Below, piece after piece: positions 28,639 through 61,098 of a DNA stretch of 62,912 bases. Location: positions 1-62,912 of the forward strand of contig JBHLQY010000001.1 in NCBI GenBank assembly GCA_048883105.1. Reading direction: 5' to 3'. Source of the DNA: Candidatus Thorarchaeota archaeon. GTDB taxonomy: Archaea; Asgardarchaeota; Lokiarchaeia; Sigyniarchaeales; SOKP01. The translations under genes were made by a program, and so were the position numbers. The notes under the pieces were generated by a model, which was given only the letters and a program-made list of their open reading frames with translations, did not search any database and had not been told where the DNA came from. The first letter of the stretch is position 1. Each line of letters starts with the position of its first letter.

Positions 28639-30009
28639 ATGAATAAAATTGAAGTTTTAGCATATTTGGAAGAAATCGTGGGCAAGGATTATGTTTCCAA
28701 TAAACCCGAAGATTTATTTATATATTCACAAGATCCTGGAGCTTCTTTACCTCGTCCAGTTGATTTTGTAGTCTTGCCTAAGACAGTTGAAGAAATCCAA
28801 AAAATCGTGATATTGGCAAATAAGGAAAAAATTCCTATAGTACCCATGGGTGGTGGATTGACCCTTAGCGGATTAATAATCCCCGTTAAAGGGGGAATTG
28901 TTTTAGATATGAAAAGAATGGATCAAATTCTCGAAATAAATGAATTAAGTCGTTATGCTCTTATAGAAGCTGGTGTTACAACGGGAAAATTACTTTCCCA
29001 ACTAAATGAAAATCATCCAGACTTACAGCCTCCAATCCCAGATGCACCACCTTCGGCAACAGTCGCAGGAAATGCGTTAATACATGGGTCAGGGTATTTA
29101 TCTCAAAAACATGGGGATCATGGAAGCATGATTAATGGTCTTGAAGTTGTCTTACCGAGTGGTGAGGTTTGTAAGTTAGGTTCTTGTGCTATCTCCGATT
29201 ATTGGTTTTCACGAGGGCCTATCCCTGATTTTATTGGTTTATTTACTAGCTCGTTTGGCACAATGGGAATCGTCACTAAGCTTTCCATTAAATTATTTCC
29301 AAGACCTAAAATGAGAGAGATAGTTTTTGGTTTATGTAAGGATCCAAAAATACTCCCTGGTTTGATTTATAACATTACATATACAGATTTAGCTGAAGAT
29401 ATCCTAATTGGAATACAAGATAAACCTGAATGGATGAAAGGATATGTTTTTATTATAGTTTATATTACGGGAAGTACTATTGAAGAATTAGAGCCTAAAA
29501 TAAAAATTCTGAAGCGTCTTTATCGTAAAGGGAAAGCAAGATATATGAAGGTACCACCAAGAATTAGGGAACTCTTTTTAGAAAAACCACAATTTGCCGC
29601 AAGGGCTGCCGATTTTAGGAAAGGGGGTGGGTTTGAATATGTTGGAAGTTTTATACCTCTTGAAAAGATCCCTGATCTAGTTGAGATTGGATCTAAAATA
29701 TCAATAAATCATGGAATAATACCAACTATGGGTGCTAGACTTATTGGAAAGGGTCATAGTGCCATGTTTTTCACTTCATATTCATTTAATCGAGCTGACA
29801 CTAAAGATATGGAAAATGCTAGGGATGCTTTACACGAAACTAACAAAGCTGTATTAAAGGTAGGTGGTATTCCATGGAAAGCAGAAATAGCTGGTCAAAA
29901 ATTAATTCTCGAAAAAATGGATCCTAATTATAAGAAGTTAATGAAGATAATTCGGAATACTCTGGATCCTAATGGAATTATGAATCCAGGAAATTGGGAG
30001 GTGGATTAA
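28639..30009 (+). CDS. FAD-linked oxidase (GlcD / D-lactate dehydrogenase-like)
   Basis: The FAD-binding PCMH-type domain is present (VVLPKTVEEIQKIVILANKEKIPIVPMGGGLTLSG) and the C-terminal end is ...LDPNGIMNPGN. I prefer the ATG at 28639. Confidence 0.8.
   Translation: MNKIEVLAYLEEIVGKDYVSNKPEDLFIYSQDPGASLPRPVDFVVLPKTVEEIQKIVILANKEKIPIVPMGGGLTLSGLIIPVKGGIVLDMKRMDQILEINELSRYALIEAGVTTGKLLSQLNENHPDLQPPIPDAPPSATVAGNALIHGSGYLSQKHGDHGSMINGLEVVLPSGEVCKLGSCAISDYWFSRGPIPDFIGLFTSSFGTMGIVTKLSIKLFPRPKMREIVFGLCKDPKILPGLIYNITYTDLAEDILIGIQDKPEWMKGYVFIIVYITGSTIEELEPKIKILKRLYRKGKARYMKVPPRIRELFLEKPQFAARAADFRKGGGFEYVGSFIPLEKIPDLVEIGSKISINHGIIPTMGARLIGKGHSAMFFTSYSFNRADTKDMENARDALHETNKAVLKVGGIPWKAEIAGQKLILEKMDPNYKKLMKIIRNTLDPNGIMNPGNWEVD
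29997..30003 (+). promoter_or_regulatory. Shine-Dalgarno element (GGAGGTG) for the GlcF-like gene
   Basis: GGAGGTG lies 8 nt upstream of the TTG at 30012. It sits inside the last codons of the upstream gene. Confidence 0.55.
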
Positions 30010-31197: not shown

Positions 31198-32220
31198 TTA
31201 ATAATTCAACGTCTCACCTAATGCTAGCCGGCACAAATCGCTTAATAAATAATTTTTTAGACCGTTTCTCTCGGTTTTAGACGCTAAGGTGTCCATACAC
31301 GCCGCGCAATTATAAACACAGGCTTCGGCTCCGTGGTCCAACATATCTTTAATTTGTTTGTTTTGAGTTGGTCTCAATAATTTATTTTTACCCAGCATTG
31401 GAAGAGTACCTCCACAACATAATGCGTTTTCTCTATCATATTTTCTTGCAACTCTTTCAACGCCAATTAATTCACAAATTTTATCAACCCATTTATCTGT
31501 TTCTGGAATAAATCGGTTAGAGCAATTTCTCTGATAAGCGATTTTCATATTGAGCTTTTTTATTTCACTCTTATGATCTATTAAATAATTGTAGAGATAT
31601 TCAAACAAATGGATAGGCTTAAAATCAGGTGGTAATTCTATATTGTTTCTTGGACAATATGAAGCATATAAACCGTAACATTCATCGTGGAAACAAATCA
31701 TTTCCTTTATACCCTGCTTTTTAATATTCTCTATTATTATTGGAGCTCTTTCTCTAATAATTGAATCTCTTTCGACATGATGGTATAAAAGATTGCAAAA
31801 AAAATCAAGACCAGCAACATATTGCAAGTTTTCAAACAATTGTCCTTCCATGTGTTTAGCATGAGATTTTACAAAAGCACATTTATTTAGTACTGGTTTT
31901 TCCGAGTCAATATGTTTTAATCTTAATTCGTCATGAGGTTTATATCTATTTATTATTGATTCAAGAAGTTTCGGCACAATATTATGTGAATTATATTTTT
32001 CTTGTAATTCCGTTATTAAATCGAATGGATGAGAACCATATGGACAATATTCATCACACCCAAAACAAGTAACGCATTCACCTAAAACTCGAGAATCCTC
32101 GCCATTAATCATTTTCATGTGTTCCGTTCTGGCTTCCTCTACATTTTCAAATTCAATCCATTGGCAGCGTGTTAAACAATCAATATTTTCACAATTAGCA
32201 CAATTGTTTTTATCAAAAAT
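31198..32220 (-). CDS. HdrD/GlpC-like Fe-S, CCG-domain protein with a probable ATT start
   Basis: The track ORF (31198-32118) contains CVTCFGCDEYCP and CCGG...CAAC motifs. The same frame continues 34 codons upstream and encodes IFDKNNCANCENIDCLTRC, a first Cys cluster. The extension is bounded by a TAA-TAA double stop, and only ATT (32220-32218) is available as a start. Confidence 0.7.
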   Translation of the reverse strand: MFDKNNCANCENIDCLTRCQWIEFENVEEARTEHMKMINGEDSRVLGECVTCFGCDEYCPYGSHPFDLITELQEKYNSHNIVPKLLESIINRYKPHDELRLKHIDSEKPVLNKCAFVKSHAKHMEGQLFENLQYVAGLDFFCNLLYHHVERDSIIRERAPIIIENIKKQGIKEMICFHDECYGLYASYCPRNNIELPPDFKPIHLFEYLYNYLIDHKSEIKKLNMKIAYQRNCSNRFIPETDKWVDKICELIGVERVARKYDRENALCCGGTLPMLGKNKLLRPTQNKQIKDMLDHGAEACVYNCAACMDTLASKTERNGLKNYLLSDLCRLALGETLNY

Positions 32221-32438
32221 GTTTTATTACACCACTTTTTTATTTATATTGCTATTAACTTCATTATTATTAGTTGTTATATAGAGATTAATTCTAAAAT
32301 ATAATTAATCTCTTTTAATACAAAATAAAGAAATTCCTATTATTAATCTTTAGAAAATATTTTTGAATTTTATAAAATTAGATAGTCAAAAGTCATCAAC
32401 TTTTTTTTATAATTTTTAGGTTAAGATTTTTGCCAGAA

Positions 32439-33739: not shown

Positions 33740-33747
33740 GAGGTGAT
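33740..33747 (+). promoter_or_regulatory. Shine-Dalgarno element (GAGGTGAT)
   Basis: GAGGTGAT lies 9 nt upstream of the ATG at 33757. It is complementary to the canonical archaeal 16S 3' end. Confidence 0.6.
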
Positions 33748-34383: not shown

Positions 34384-34663
34384 GATGAATAAAAGGTAAA
34401 TTGGATGAAAATTTAATCCACATGACTTTTTATATCTCATTATTATGTATTAATAAAAAAATATTAGAAGGTTACATTTTTTTTAATTATATATTCATCA
34501 ATTTCTTCATATGTATAAGAAAATGTTTTAGAGTCATAAAAGAAATAATTTTATAAATGCTACTTTTATAAATATCTTTGATTAGGTAATTATTTTAAAA
34601 TTTAACTTTAAAAAACCACAAAATTAAAAATATTTCATTTATAAGCAGATTGGTGGGTTCTTA

Positions 34664-35743
34664 ATTTCTCGTAAAAGAGTCAAAAACTGGTCTCGATCAA
34701 TTAGAAATTTTCTTATTAACAAATTTACTGGGAAAAAAATTCCATACTCCGCCCAAATAGAAGTTAATTTAAAATGCAATGCAAAATGTCCATTCTGCGC
34801 AATTGATATATTGCCGGAGTCTTATGTTAATAATGAGATGACAACAGAACAGATAAAGTTATTAATTGATCAGTTAGCTGAAATAGGTGTAAATGCGTTA
34901 TCCCTCACAGGAGGAGAGCCAACTTTAAGGAGCGATCTACCAGAACTTATTTATCACATGGGAATTGTTCATGATTTTTTTAATGGCATAACTAGTAATG
35001 GATTTTATCTACCTGAATTGATACCTAAATTTGAAGGCTTAGATTATATATTAACTTCGCTTGATTATCCTACGGCTGAATTACATGATAGAATAAGAGG
35101 AATAAAAGTTTTTGATAAAGTCATTAGGTCTATTCATTTAGCTCATAAAAAGGACATAAACGTTGTAATCAGTACGGTTGTGATGAAGGATAATTTAGAT
35201 TTATTAGAAGATCTCTGTGAGTTAGCTGAAAATTTAAATTGCGCAATCGAATTATATCCATGTGAAGATATTATGTGGAATATTTCCGATAAAAGTTATC
35301 GAGTTAATGGCATTAAAGATTTAATACCTGACTTAACAATCTGGGCTAATAAAATTAGAGAGTTAAAACCCAAATTCAAAAATATTCTCACAGATACAGT
35401 AAGCGTCGAGATAATTGAAAAGGGTGGTTTTGGTGGTAATCCTCATTTTTACCAGGATATATTGCGATGCCATGTTGCTGAGGCTTATATGTTTATACGT
35501 CATGATGGTGTTATTGATTATCCATGCAAAATAAATCCTCTAAGAAGTTTTGATGCTTTTAAGTATCCTCCTTCGAAAATAATTAATTGTATGGAAGTAA
35601 GAGATATTATGGAAAAACATGACGATTATAGTTTTTGTAACGGCTGTCGACTAGGATGTGCTATAATGGCTTCAATACCAACTAGACTGAAAACATTTTA
35701 CGCAAAATACATACGAGGTTTCTTAGATGGCAATTTAGGATAA
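34664..35743 (+). CDS. Radical SAM protein (possible SPASM-type C-terminal Cys cluster), probable ATT start
   Basis: In-frame codons upstream of the track start (TTG 34811) encode ...IPYSAQIEVNLKCNAKCPFCAIDI, the CX3CX2C radical SAM motif. They are followed by SLTGGEPTLRSDL (the GGEP SAM motif). The frame is open from 34628 with no ATG/GTG/TTG before 34811. ATT at 34664 lies 8 nt after a GGTG. The C-terminus has CNGCRLGC. Confidence 0.72.
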   Translation: MSRKRVKNWSRSIRNFLINKFTGKKIPYSAQIEVNLKCNAKCPFCAIDILPESYVNNEMTTEQIKLLIDQLAEIGVNALSLTGGEPTLRSDLPELIYHMGIVHDFFNGITSNGFYLPELIPKFEGLDYILTSLDYPTAELHDRIRGIKVFDKVIRSIHLAHKKDINVVISTVVMKDNLDLLEDLCELAENLNCAIELYPCEDIMWNISDKSYRVNGIKDLIPDLTIWANKIRELKPKFKNILTDTVSVEIIEKGGFGGNPHFYQDILRCHVAEAYMFIRHDGVIDYPCKINPLRSFDAFKYPPSKIINCMEVRDIMEKHDDYSFCNGCRLGCAIMASIPTRLKTFYAKYIRGFLDGNLG

Positions 35744-60115: not shown

Positions 60116-60955
60116 TTATATGAGAAGGGCTCCAATCGCTCCACAGAATTCTGAATTTCTTAAAAAAATTGCTTTTTTATTGTTAACTTTACAAAGTAAT
60201 GATAACATTTTTTTTAAAACCTTATTATTCCTAAGAAATCCTCCACAGAATATTAAATTAATTATATCATTGGTTTCAGCCATTTGACAAGCAATTATTC
60301 CAACGTTTTCACCAATCATATTTATTAAAGAACTTATAATATCTTCTTTTTGAACTGAATTCATAGTAAAATTATCATTGATTTTCCCAAACGATGCAGC
60401 AGTAAATTCCCTAAAAATTGAGTTAACCCGATCGTCTTCGGGTTCATAAATATCCGATACTTTTAAATCTACATTATATCTATCTCCAATCGTTGATAAT
60501 TTCATCGCTTCCTGGAAATCATTGAAGTTAAATAGTAATTTAATTAATCCCATAAATAATCCACCTCCAAGAGCGGTTCCTCCCAAATGTTTAAACGATT
60601 TCTTTTTCAAAATTATGGAAGTTCCCGTCCCTATAGTAATTATTAAAGAATCTGGCACAGCTATTTCTTTGTTTAGCAAGAAAAGAGTTTCTATTCCTTT
60701 AATATTTGCTTGAAATTCGTTATATAATTTTGTTTCTACTTCTTTTGAATACTTATTATATAAATTGAAAGCTTTACCGCCAGTAAAATTAAATTTTTTA
60801 TAAAATCTTTTTTTTAAATCTAAAAACTTAATAATTTCTTCGAAATTTGGTTTAGTTAATATTAAATTAAGATATAAATTATCACCTTCGAGATAAGCAA
60901 TTTTTGTTAAACTTTGTCCTATATCGATTCCTATAATATTTAAAGGAATTTCAAT
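60116..60955 (-). CDS. Type II (Staphylococcus/eukaryote-like) pantothenate kinase with a probable non-canonical start
   Basis: The track ORF (from TTG 60679) matches the C-terminal two thirds of S. aureus-type PanK-II (IGTGTSI...LGGTALGGGLFMGL, GDRYNVDLKVSDIY, FTAASFG, NSEFCGAIGALL). The same frame continues upstream and encodes IIGIDIGQSLTKIAY (the ASKHA phosphate-1 motif) and FTGGKA. No ATG/GTG/TTG occurs between the stop at 61004-61006 and 60679. ATT candidates include 60955. Confidence 0.72.
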   Translation of the reverse strand: MEIPLNIIGIDIGQSLTKIAYLEGDNLYLNLILTKPNFEEIIKFLDLKKRFYKKFNFTGGKAFNLYNKYSKEVETKLYNEFQANIKGIETLFLLNKEIAVPDSLIITIGTGTSIILKKKSFKHLGGTALGGGLFMGLIKLLFNFNDFQEAMKLSTIGDRYNVDLKVSDIYEPEDDRVNSIFREFTAASFGKINDNFTMNSVQKEDIISSLINMIGENVGIIACQMAETNDIINLIFCGGFLRNNKVLKKMLSLLCKVNNKKAIFLRNSEFCGAIGALLI

Positions 60956-61098
60956 TTTCGATTGATTTATTCGAATTTTTAATAGGTCAATTTTTAAGAT
61001 TTCTTACCACTTCGCTAAAGGTTTAATTGAAAAATCCATTATAATATTATAAAATTATTTTGAGATTATAAATTAATTCTCTCAGATTATTTGTTAAA

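Follow-up and report, generated by a model that had tools for sequence, protein, structure and literature searches.

In Escherichia coli, translation of infC (encoding initiation factor IF3) and of pcnB starts at AUU, and the AUU of infC has been linked to the autoregulation of IF3. Here we describe an archaeal gene which very probably starts in the same fashion: it encodes an iron-sulphur (Fe-S) protein of HdrD/EtfD type on the minus strand of a 62,912-nucleotide (nt) stretch from Candidatus Thorarchaeota archaeon, an Asgard archaeon of Loki type (GCA_048883105.1, contig JBHLQY010000001.1, positions 1 to 62,912; hereafter 'the window'), and its translation appears to begin at an ATT (32220-32218) led by a Shine-Dalgarno (SD) element and not at the first ATG, located 34 codons downstream. 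A further bacterial case is ebpA of Enterococcus faecalis, which is reported to start at ATT (PMC4447247). These three genes resemble the Fe-S gene in that an AUU behind an SD element is the real start and a downstream ATG is mis-annotated, with attenuated expression being presumed; however, they are isolated bacterial genes, whereas the Fe-S gene resides in an archaeal host with initiation factors of eukaryotic type (aIF1, aIF1A and aIF2) and shares its start type with dozens of other genes.

Within the Asgard archaea, a 'likely rare ATT start codon' has been proposed for the tubulin AtubA from a metagenome-assembled genome (MAG) of the Kariarchaeaceae (PMC13394414). There, too, the deposited protein is truncated, and the conserved N-terminus is regained with an ATT further upstream, plausibly spaced from a ribosome binding site, but this is a single anecdotal case from another Asgard class, remarked upon among the methods and accompanied by neither a comparative nor a genome-wide test. 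As found by Belinky, Rogozin and Koonin (2017), a stronger SD compensates for switches from AUG to GUG or UUG (PMC5622118), and the Fe-S family likewise pairs a sub-optimal start codon with a stronger SD across orthologues. Their analysis concerned AUG, GUG and UUG only, whereas the Fe-S family exhibits switches to AUU and AUA, its ATG orthologues are usually devoid of an SD, and AUC, ACG and CUG are found in addition. Ribosome profiling of Haloferax volcanii placed ∼30% of putative alternative initiation sites at near-cognate codons (PMC7261190), but these were discounted as potentially false positive and are not the main starts of conserved genes. In the literature we found no systematic report of near-cognate main starts, and the only notice of them that we found for Asgard archaea is anecdotal. 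Initiation at an SD-led near-cognate codon is, as a mechanism, of an already known kind.

The features of the Fe-S locus, all on the minus strand, are the following.

31198..32220, minus: proposed full-length coding sequence (340 codons and the stop) of an HdrD/EtfD-like Fe-S protein
31288..31539, minus: C-terminal CCG domain (Pfam PF02754, residues 229-312) with its motif C-x34-CC-x35-C-x2-C intact
32041..32076, minus: second, canonical cluster motif CVTCFGCDEYCP; C50, C53, C56 and C60 are invariant in the alignment
32116..32118, minus: first ATG (Met35), the choice of standard gene callers, yielding a truncated product of 306 residues (open reading frame list)
32119..32217, minus: the 33 codons separating ATT from the first ATG, with the first cluster motif C-x2-C-x4-C-x3-C
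32202-32200, 32193-32191, 32178-32176 and 32166-32164, minus: Cys codons of the first motif, as read from the sequence
32218..32220, minus: ATT, the proposed initiation codon, aligned with the start Met of homologues (MFDK...)
32224..32229, minus: in-frame TAA TAA, between the GTG codons of the SD and the ATT, as read from the sequence
32230..32233, minus: SD core GGTG, within GTGGTG (32235-32230), 9 nt before the ATT

The reading frame is closed by TAA at 31200-31198 and is open up to TAA TAA at 32229-32224, that is, for 34 codons beyond the first ATG. Reading along the minus strand, one encounters TAA TAA, AAC, ATT 32220-32218, the 33 sense codons FDKNNCANCENIDCLTRCQWIEFENVEEARTEH and ATG 32118, and no in-frame ATG, GTG or TTG occurs between the ATT and this ATG. 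Hence, the first canonical start of the gene comes only after a four-Cys motif, with TAA TAA located two codons upstream of the ATT. Given the triplet frequencies between the genes of this genome (0.882 per codon), a run of 34 codons with neither a stop nor a canonical start is expected by chance with a probability of ∼0.014; together with full-length homology to more than 100 N-termini this makes a chance origin of the extension unlikely. The 3' end of the 16S rRNA of this genome reads ...GGATCACCTCCT, so that GGTG(A) is a true complement of the anti-SD, and the distance of 9 nt from GGTG to ATT falls within the 5-11 nt observed for canonical GGTG-led starts in the genome. An earlier note on this DNA, made from the letters alone, had reported the open frame, the complete first Cys motif ahead of the second one and the placement of the ATT 9 nt after GGTG, and the sequence agrees with all three; the two SD elements it had drawn on for comparison are likewise in place, namely GGAGGTG at 29997-30003, 8 nt before TTG 30012, and GAGGTGAT at 33740-33747, 9 nt before ATG 33757. 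Its description of the SD as correctly spaced holds in that the element is complementary to the anti-SD and lies at a distance also used by canonical starts, but it is of middling strength and the preferred spacing is 7 nt. Its statement that the ATT is the only initiator-like codon of the extension needs to be narrowed to the only ATT with an SD, since two more in-frame ATT codons (32184-32182 and 32157-32155), neither of them led by an SD, are located inside and after the Cys motif. As an aside, the gene of a TfrB/GlcF-like protein is listed with a start at TTG 29994, while the position of GGAGGTG makes TTG 30012 the likelier one.

More than 100 Asgard homologues of 337-342 residues span 100% of the extended protein, including the extension, and the Met with which they begin (MFDKSNC...) is aligned exactly with the ATT; both N-terminal Cys motifs are thus found in the homologues, which is what the earlier note had proposed to look for. 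At the DNA level, start codons were compared for ∼40 orthologous or paralogous loci. In most of these the start is ATG and in one paralogue it is ATA, while the window and seven further lineages, which come from different samples and assemblers, have ATT at the aligned position and exhibit in each case a GGTG 6-9 nt upstream. In one HdrD-like paralogue (the second one of L006, see below) the aligned position is occupied by GTT. The other lineages with ATT are listed here.

G044 (L008) and G005 (L009): two genomes from the genus of the window
L001/L002: GCA_004524535.1 and the Logan assembly of SRR7615342
L003: JGI contig 3300018080
L004/5: GCA_019058355.1 and SRR14802573
L006: JGI contig 3300028897
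L015: G022, from another genus

Between SD and ATT the frame is interrupted by a stop in the window as well as in L001, L008 and L009, so that no start but the ATT is available there. For L003, L004 and L006, gene callers chose the GTG inside GGTG, resulting in N-termini such as VVIKIFD...; for the window such a start is ruled out by the intervening TAA TAA. For a relative with 92% identity (P0007), NCBI holds a truncated entry of 306 residues.

Start codon and SD vary together in this family. GGTG is present in 8/8 rows with ATT or ATA versus 2/28 rows with ATG (Fisher's exact test, p = 1.5e-6, with kinship being ignored), and both ATG copies bearing GGTG are sisters of ATT copies. A test of SD against start codon on phylogenetically independent pairs gave a median p of 0.25, there being too few pairs, and the protein tree requires at least eight switches between ATG and non-ATG starts. 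Among the seven ATT-bearing orthologues, codons 2-35 of the extension show pN/pS values of 0.13-0.41, with pS reaching 0.9 and thus being near saturation; none of the four Cys varies, and neither stops nor indels occur. Such purifying selection, along with the invariant Cys and the intact frame, indicates that the upstream stretch is translated in lineages which lack a canonical start.

The entire source assembly (2.1 Mb in 89 contigs, 30% GC, a MAG that is ∼83% complete) was then scanned for 'orphan' GGTG elements, lying 8 or more codons ahead of the first ATG, GTG or TTG of an open reading frame of at least 100 codons and at most 2 codons from its 5' stop. An in-frame near-cognate codon follows 5-10 nt downstream in 25/33 orphan events, compared with 21.6% of 3,377 internal GGTG elements (p = 5e-11). 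The codons behind the orphan SD elements are ATT (11), ATA (9), ATC (3), ACG (2) and CTG (1). When proximity to the stop is not demanded, ATT accounts for 18/140 triplets in frame versus 4/286 out of frame. The spacing between SD and near-cognate codon peaks sharply at 7 nt (16/33), which is also the mode for canonical starts. For at least 11 of the surveyed genes the Pfam domain model begins within the extension, as in the following.

ATT start: ADH_N; domain begins in the extension
ATT start: TFIIB zinc ribbon (TFB); domain begins in the extension
ATT start: ECH_1; 72 domain residues precede the first canonical start
ATT start: GCHY-1; domain begins in the extension
ATT start: Roadblock (Robl_LC7); domain begins in the extension
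ATT start: Radical_SAM; domain begins in the extension
ATA start: ribosomal protein uS10 (Ribosomal_S10); 65/101 residues precede the first canonical start
ATA start: Ras-like GTPase, contig C2 ~51117, minus; ATA 7 nt after GGTGAT, Pfam Ras from residue 2
ATC start: alpha/beta hydrolase (Abhydrolase_1); domain begins in the extension
ACG start: phosphofructokinase (PFK); domain begins in the extension
CTG start: ABC ATPase (ABC_tran); domain begins in the extension

Initiation at ATA would thus explain the small GTPase on contig C2, whose P-loop lies ahead of any canonical start, and no frameshift need be assumed for it. Apparent SD-led ACG codons (mevalonate kinase and phosphofructokinase) and an apparent SD-led CTG (ABC ATPase) were encountered at C22:21799 (plus), C79:1565 (plus) and C28:20319 (minus), which suggests a near-cognate set wider than ATT, ATA and ATC.

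SD elements are rare in this genome, with GGTG preceding ∼3-4% of first canonical starts. Since GGTG at the same spacing leads a first canonical start in only 61 cases, the 25 near-cognate codons represent a large share of all SD-led starts. This strict count corresponds to ∼1.5% of ∼1,670 genes, while extrapolating from how far long extensions without a start are in excess yields a rough figure of ∼60-170 genes; the latter was obtained on a filtered gene set, the excess over all open reading frames being confounded by antisense shadow frames. A codon-usage score meant to separate coding from non-coding extensions proved too weak on pieces of 20 codons (means of 0.13 for the positives versus -0.11 for the null, with heavy overlap). 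The survey hits include at least one false positive: ATT 26743 (plus), 10 nt after GGGTGAA, is a probable one, since the N-terminus that results from an ATG 19 codons further on, MKKYKVDVAVIGAGAAG, is typical of FAD-binding proteins.

The earlier note had suggested that the situation recurs at three other genes of the window. The radical SAM gene exhibits GGTG 8 nt before ATT 34664 (34652-34666, plus) and, upstream of its first TTG (34811), a CxxxCxxC motif. Both the ATT and its SD are also present in GCA_004524535.1 (L001 ~1740-1779), for which the NCBI product of 369 residues starts from a non-canonical ATA and the Logan call is truncated to 304 residues. The reading frame of ribosomal protein S28e (eS28; 698-435, minus) contains no ATG at all and no ATG, GTG or TTG ahead of its conserved core; just past the stop of the upstream L7Ae gene, AAGGGG is followed by an in-frame ATT (680-678) and a CTG (674-672), either of which may serve as the start. 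In the PanK-II-like gene, 108 start-less codons containing GIDIGQSLTK (60679-61003, minus) are preceded by only a weak SD-like GTGGT, with ATC 61000 and ATT 60991 near the 5' stop as candidate starts. The broader expectation that ATT is a genuine start codon at appreciable frequency is supported by the strong in-frame enrichment behind orphan SD elements, with the refinement that ATA is about as frequent and that ATC, ACG and CTG are used as well.

We then compared the source genome with other archaea, counting canonical GGTG-led starts and near-cognate codons after an orphan SD.

G000 (source genome): 61 canonical, 25 near-cognate
G027 (another Lokiarchaeial genus, 400 kb): 12 canonical, 5 near-cognate
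G061 (another Asgard family, 400 kb): 77 canonical, 3 near-cognate
G090 (another Asgard family, 400 kb): 42 canonical, 0 near-cognate
Non-Asgard archaea (747 kb around uS10): 108 canonical, near-cognate in 6/56 orphan events

There are a few convincing near-cognate cases in G061 and G090, and the non-Asgard set shows no in-frame enrichment (6/105 in frame versus 25/231 out of frame), this control being limited by its higher GC content and its restriction to ribosomal-protein neighbourhoods. For uS10, nine species representatives of the Loki family have ATA at the start position, always behind a GGTGA at a distance of 6-8 nt; one has ATT, others have GTG or TTG, and ATG is found where the SD is absent. 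Outside this family the start is ATG. In some Lokiarchaeial genomes (L129 ~528-530; L068/L069) the aligned uS10 start behind the GGTGA is GTT or TCG, neither of which is, in the usual sense, one base away from ATG. Based on these sequence comparisons, the ATT of the Fe-S gene appears as one case of a lineage-wide and under-annotated habit of near-cognate initiation in Lokiarchaeia.

The alignment of the ATT with the start Met of homologues, the co-occurrence of ATT and SD across lineages, the purifying selection on the extension, and the recurrence both genome-wide and within the family thus lead us to conclude that translation of the Fe-S gene starts, in all likelihood, at the SD-led ATT 32220-32218. 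The mRNA would be leadered, with GGTG pairing with the 3' end of the 16S rRNA and thereby setting the ATT in the P site, where the ordinary initiator Met-tRNA (anticodon CAU) would decode it as a near-cognate codon, such that the protein begins with Met. The sole CAU tRNA found with ARAGORN (C11:33681-33807, minus) carries a 48-nt intron and is of the standard initiator type, with A1:U72 and an anticodon stem containing three G-C pairs. These archaeal initiator hallmarks give no indication of a special tRNA, with only 26 tRNAs having been found in the MAG and the set thus being incomplete. Initiation at ATT would presumably proceed below the rate of ATG and be compensated in part by the SD. 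In an AT-rich genome (30% GC) with most genes devoid of an SD, drift from ATG to ATT or ATA may be tolerated only on SD-led messages; the preference for ATT and ATA would fit a mutation pressure from G to T or A acting on genes whose SD renders the start codon less critical, and genes without an SD, maybe leaderless, would have to retain ATG.

The 340-residue product can be described as an Fe-S protein of HdrD/GlpC/EtfD type, predicted from sequence and structural model to consist of an N-terminal two-cluster ferredoxin-like domain and an HdrB-like CCG body. Pfam PF02754 (CCG) matches residues 229-312 with 21.2 bits (cut-off 20.6). The CCG motif of HdrB is defined as C-x31-39-CC-x35-36-C-x2-C, and the C-terminal copy, C234-x34-C269C270-x35-C306-x2-C309, is intact and all of its Cys are invariant in the homologue alignment; the first CCG-like half is devoid of the CC pair. 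In HdrD, GlpC and mycobacterial EtfD, a dicluster domain like that of HdrC is fused to a CCG body like that of HdrB. The same domain order is predicted for the Fe-S protein, but it differs from these three in this first CCG-like half and in its first cluster motif, C-x2-C-x4-C-x3-C without a trailing Pro. Both N-terminal four-Cys motifs are present and conserved, with the first being atypical (x4 spacing, no trailing Pro), weakly matched by Pfam and modelled at a low pLDDT. With the AlphaFold model (mean pLDDT 76) as query, Foldseek retrieved HdrB (8rwn_B, E 2.3e-8; 5odc_B, E 7e-8) and full-length mycobacterial EtfD (9ojn, TMq 0.59 across 348 columns), at modest TM scores of 0.48-0.59. None of the NCBIfam equivalogs for GlpC, GlcF, LdhH, HmcF and TfrB reaches its cut-off (the best, LdhH, scores 33 bits versus 800, and GlpC 19 bits versus 278), and hence the protein should not be given any of these names. 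A search of the PDB sequences with the family profile gave zero matches. The nearest database proteins are labelled Promethearchaeota or Lokiarchaeota, and the genome itself yields 7 paralogous matches. The gene is convergent to those of a GlcD-like flavoprotein and a TfrB/GlcF-like Fe-S protein, an arrangement also found in the relative L003. On its other side, the divergent intergenic region between a dual-specificity-phosphatase-like gene (32430, plus) and the Fe-S gene contains a perfect 11-bp inverted repeat, AGAGATTAATT-N9-AATTAATCTCT (32283-32313), which could be the binding site of a regulator.

Several observations weigh against a start at the ATT, or at least against a role of the SD and of the first Cys motif: (i) the SD is middling, with a core of 4 bp, and 9 nt is at the long end of the observed spacings, whose mode is 7, (ii) an AT-rich, TATA-like element is seen by eye ∼26 nt upstream of the ATT, such that a leaderless transcript would fit as well, (iii) matches to the dicluster models Fer4_8, Fer4_10 and Fer4_17, which set in at residues 2-7, are below cut-offs (E 0.01-0.04), and (iv) the N-terminal cluster domain of the AlphaFold model has a pLDDT of only ∼47-70, which is why the structure does not confirm the role of the first motif independently. 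The full-length protein might arise by another route, from a leaderless mRNA beginning at or near the ATT or from AAC or another non-standard codon, with GGTG being devoid of a role; besides the TATA-like stretch, the scarcity of GGTG before canonical starts noted above and a review which describes SD motifs as not prevalent in Prometheoarchaeum (PMC7531240) speak for this option. However, the GGTG 6-9 nt upstream is found in every ATT or ATA orthologue and is absent from most of those with ATG, and near-cognate starts across the genome share the sharp 7-nt spacing with canonical ones. Leaderless initiation is, moreover, strongly dependent on AUG in the systems studied, and we thus regard this route as improbable.

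A start at Met35 would yield a 306-residue protein with a single motif and render the 34 upstream codons an untranslated relic. ATG 32118 is the first canonical start, the NCBI annotation of P0007 agrees with it, and Met35 is itself fairly conserved; yet this ATG is devoid of an SD, position 35 is occupied by T, E, I, L, K or F in many homologues, and an open extension with four invariant Cys and a pN/pS of 0.13-0.41 at near-saturated synonymous sites, in seven ATT lineages, is hard to reconcile with a relic. In two-cluster ferredoxin folds each cluster draws ligands from both motifs. Truncation would then harm both clusters, and a start at Met35 appears very improbable. Even less credible is that the gene is decaying, having lost its start codon and thereby its expression: a canonical start is indeed missing, and the number of paralogues makes redundancy plausible, but the frame of 340 codons is wholly intact, the protein is 69-92% identical to its relatives, the ATT lineages cover several genera and are still under purifying selection, and the essential single-copy genes of uS10, uS11 and TFB have the same type of start. 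In favour of the ATT being an assembly or base-call error for ATG, the fragmented state of the MAG may be cited, but the chance of it is close to nil: the same ATT recurs in at least seven relatives assembled independently from different samples with different pipelines, and the same class of codon stands behind an SD at dozens of genes.

An SD-led start at the ATT has a direct bearing on what the Fe-S protein is taken to be, since ATG-based annotation drops four predicted cluster-ligating Cys. More generally, gene callers confined to ATG, GTG and TTG would systematically truncate or miss Asgard proteins, ribosomal proteins and TFB among them, and such proteins are used in phylogenomics and in work on structure and function concerned with the origin of eukaryotes. 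The tie between weak start codons and strong SD elements, in a genome where SD elements are rare, also provides a testable hypothesis on start selection of the aIF1/aIF2 type. It is tempting to speculate, tentatively and a little short of calling it probable, that start stringency is relaxed or tunable on SD-led messages of Lokiarchaeia, with AUU, AUA, AUC, ACG and CUG serving as stable main starts of a few percent of genes, including the core information genes of uS10, uS11, eS28 and TFB, and with start identity flipping among orthologues between a leaderless-like, SD-less ATG and an SD-led ATT or ATA. If so, a sizeable share of public Asgard proteins would be truncated at the N-terminus, and near-cognate initiation would represent a lineage-level property of the eukaryotic-type initiation machinery of these archaea instead of a handful of exceptions.

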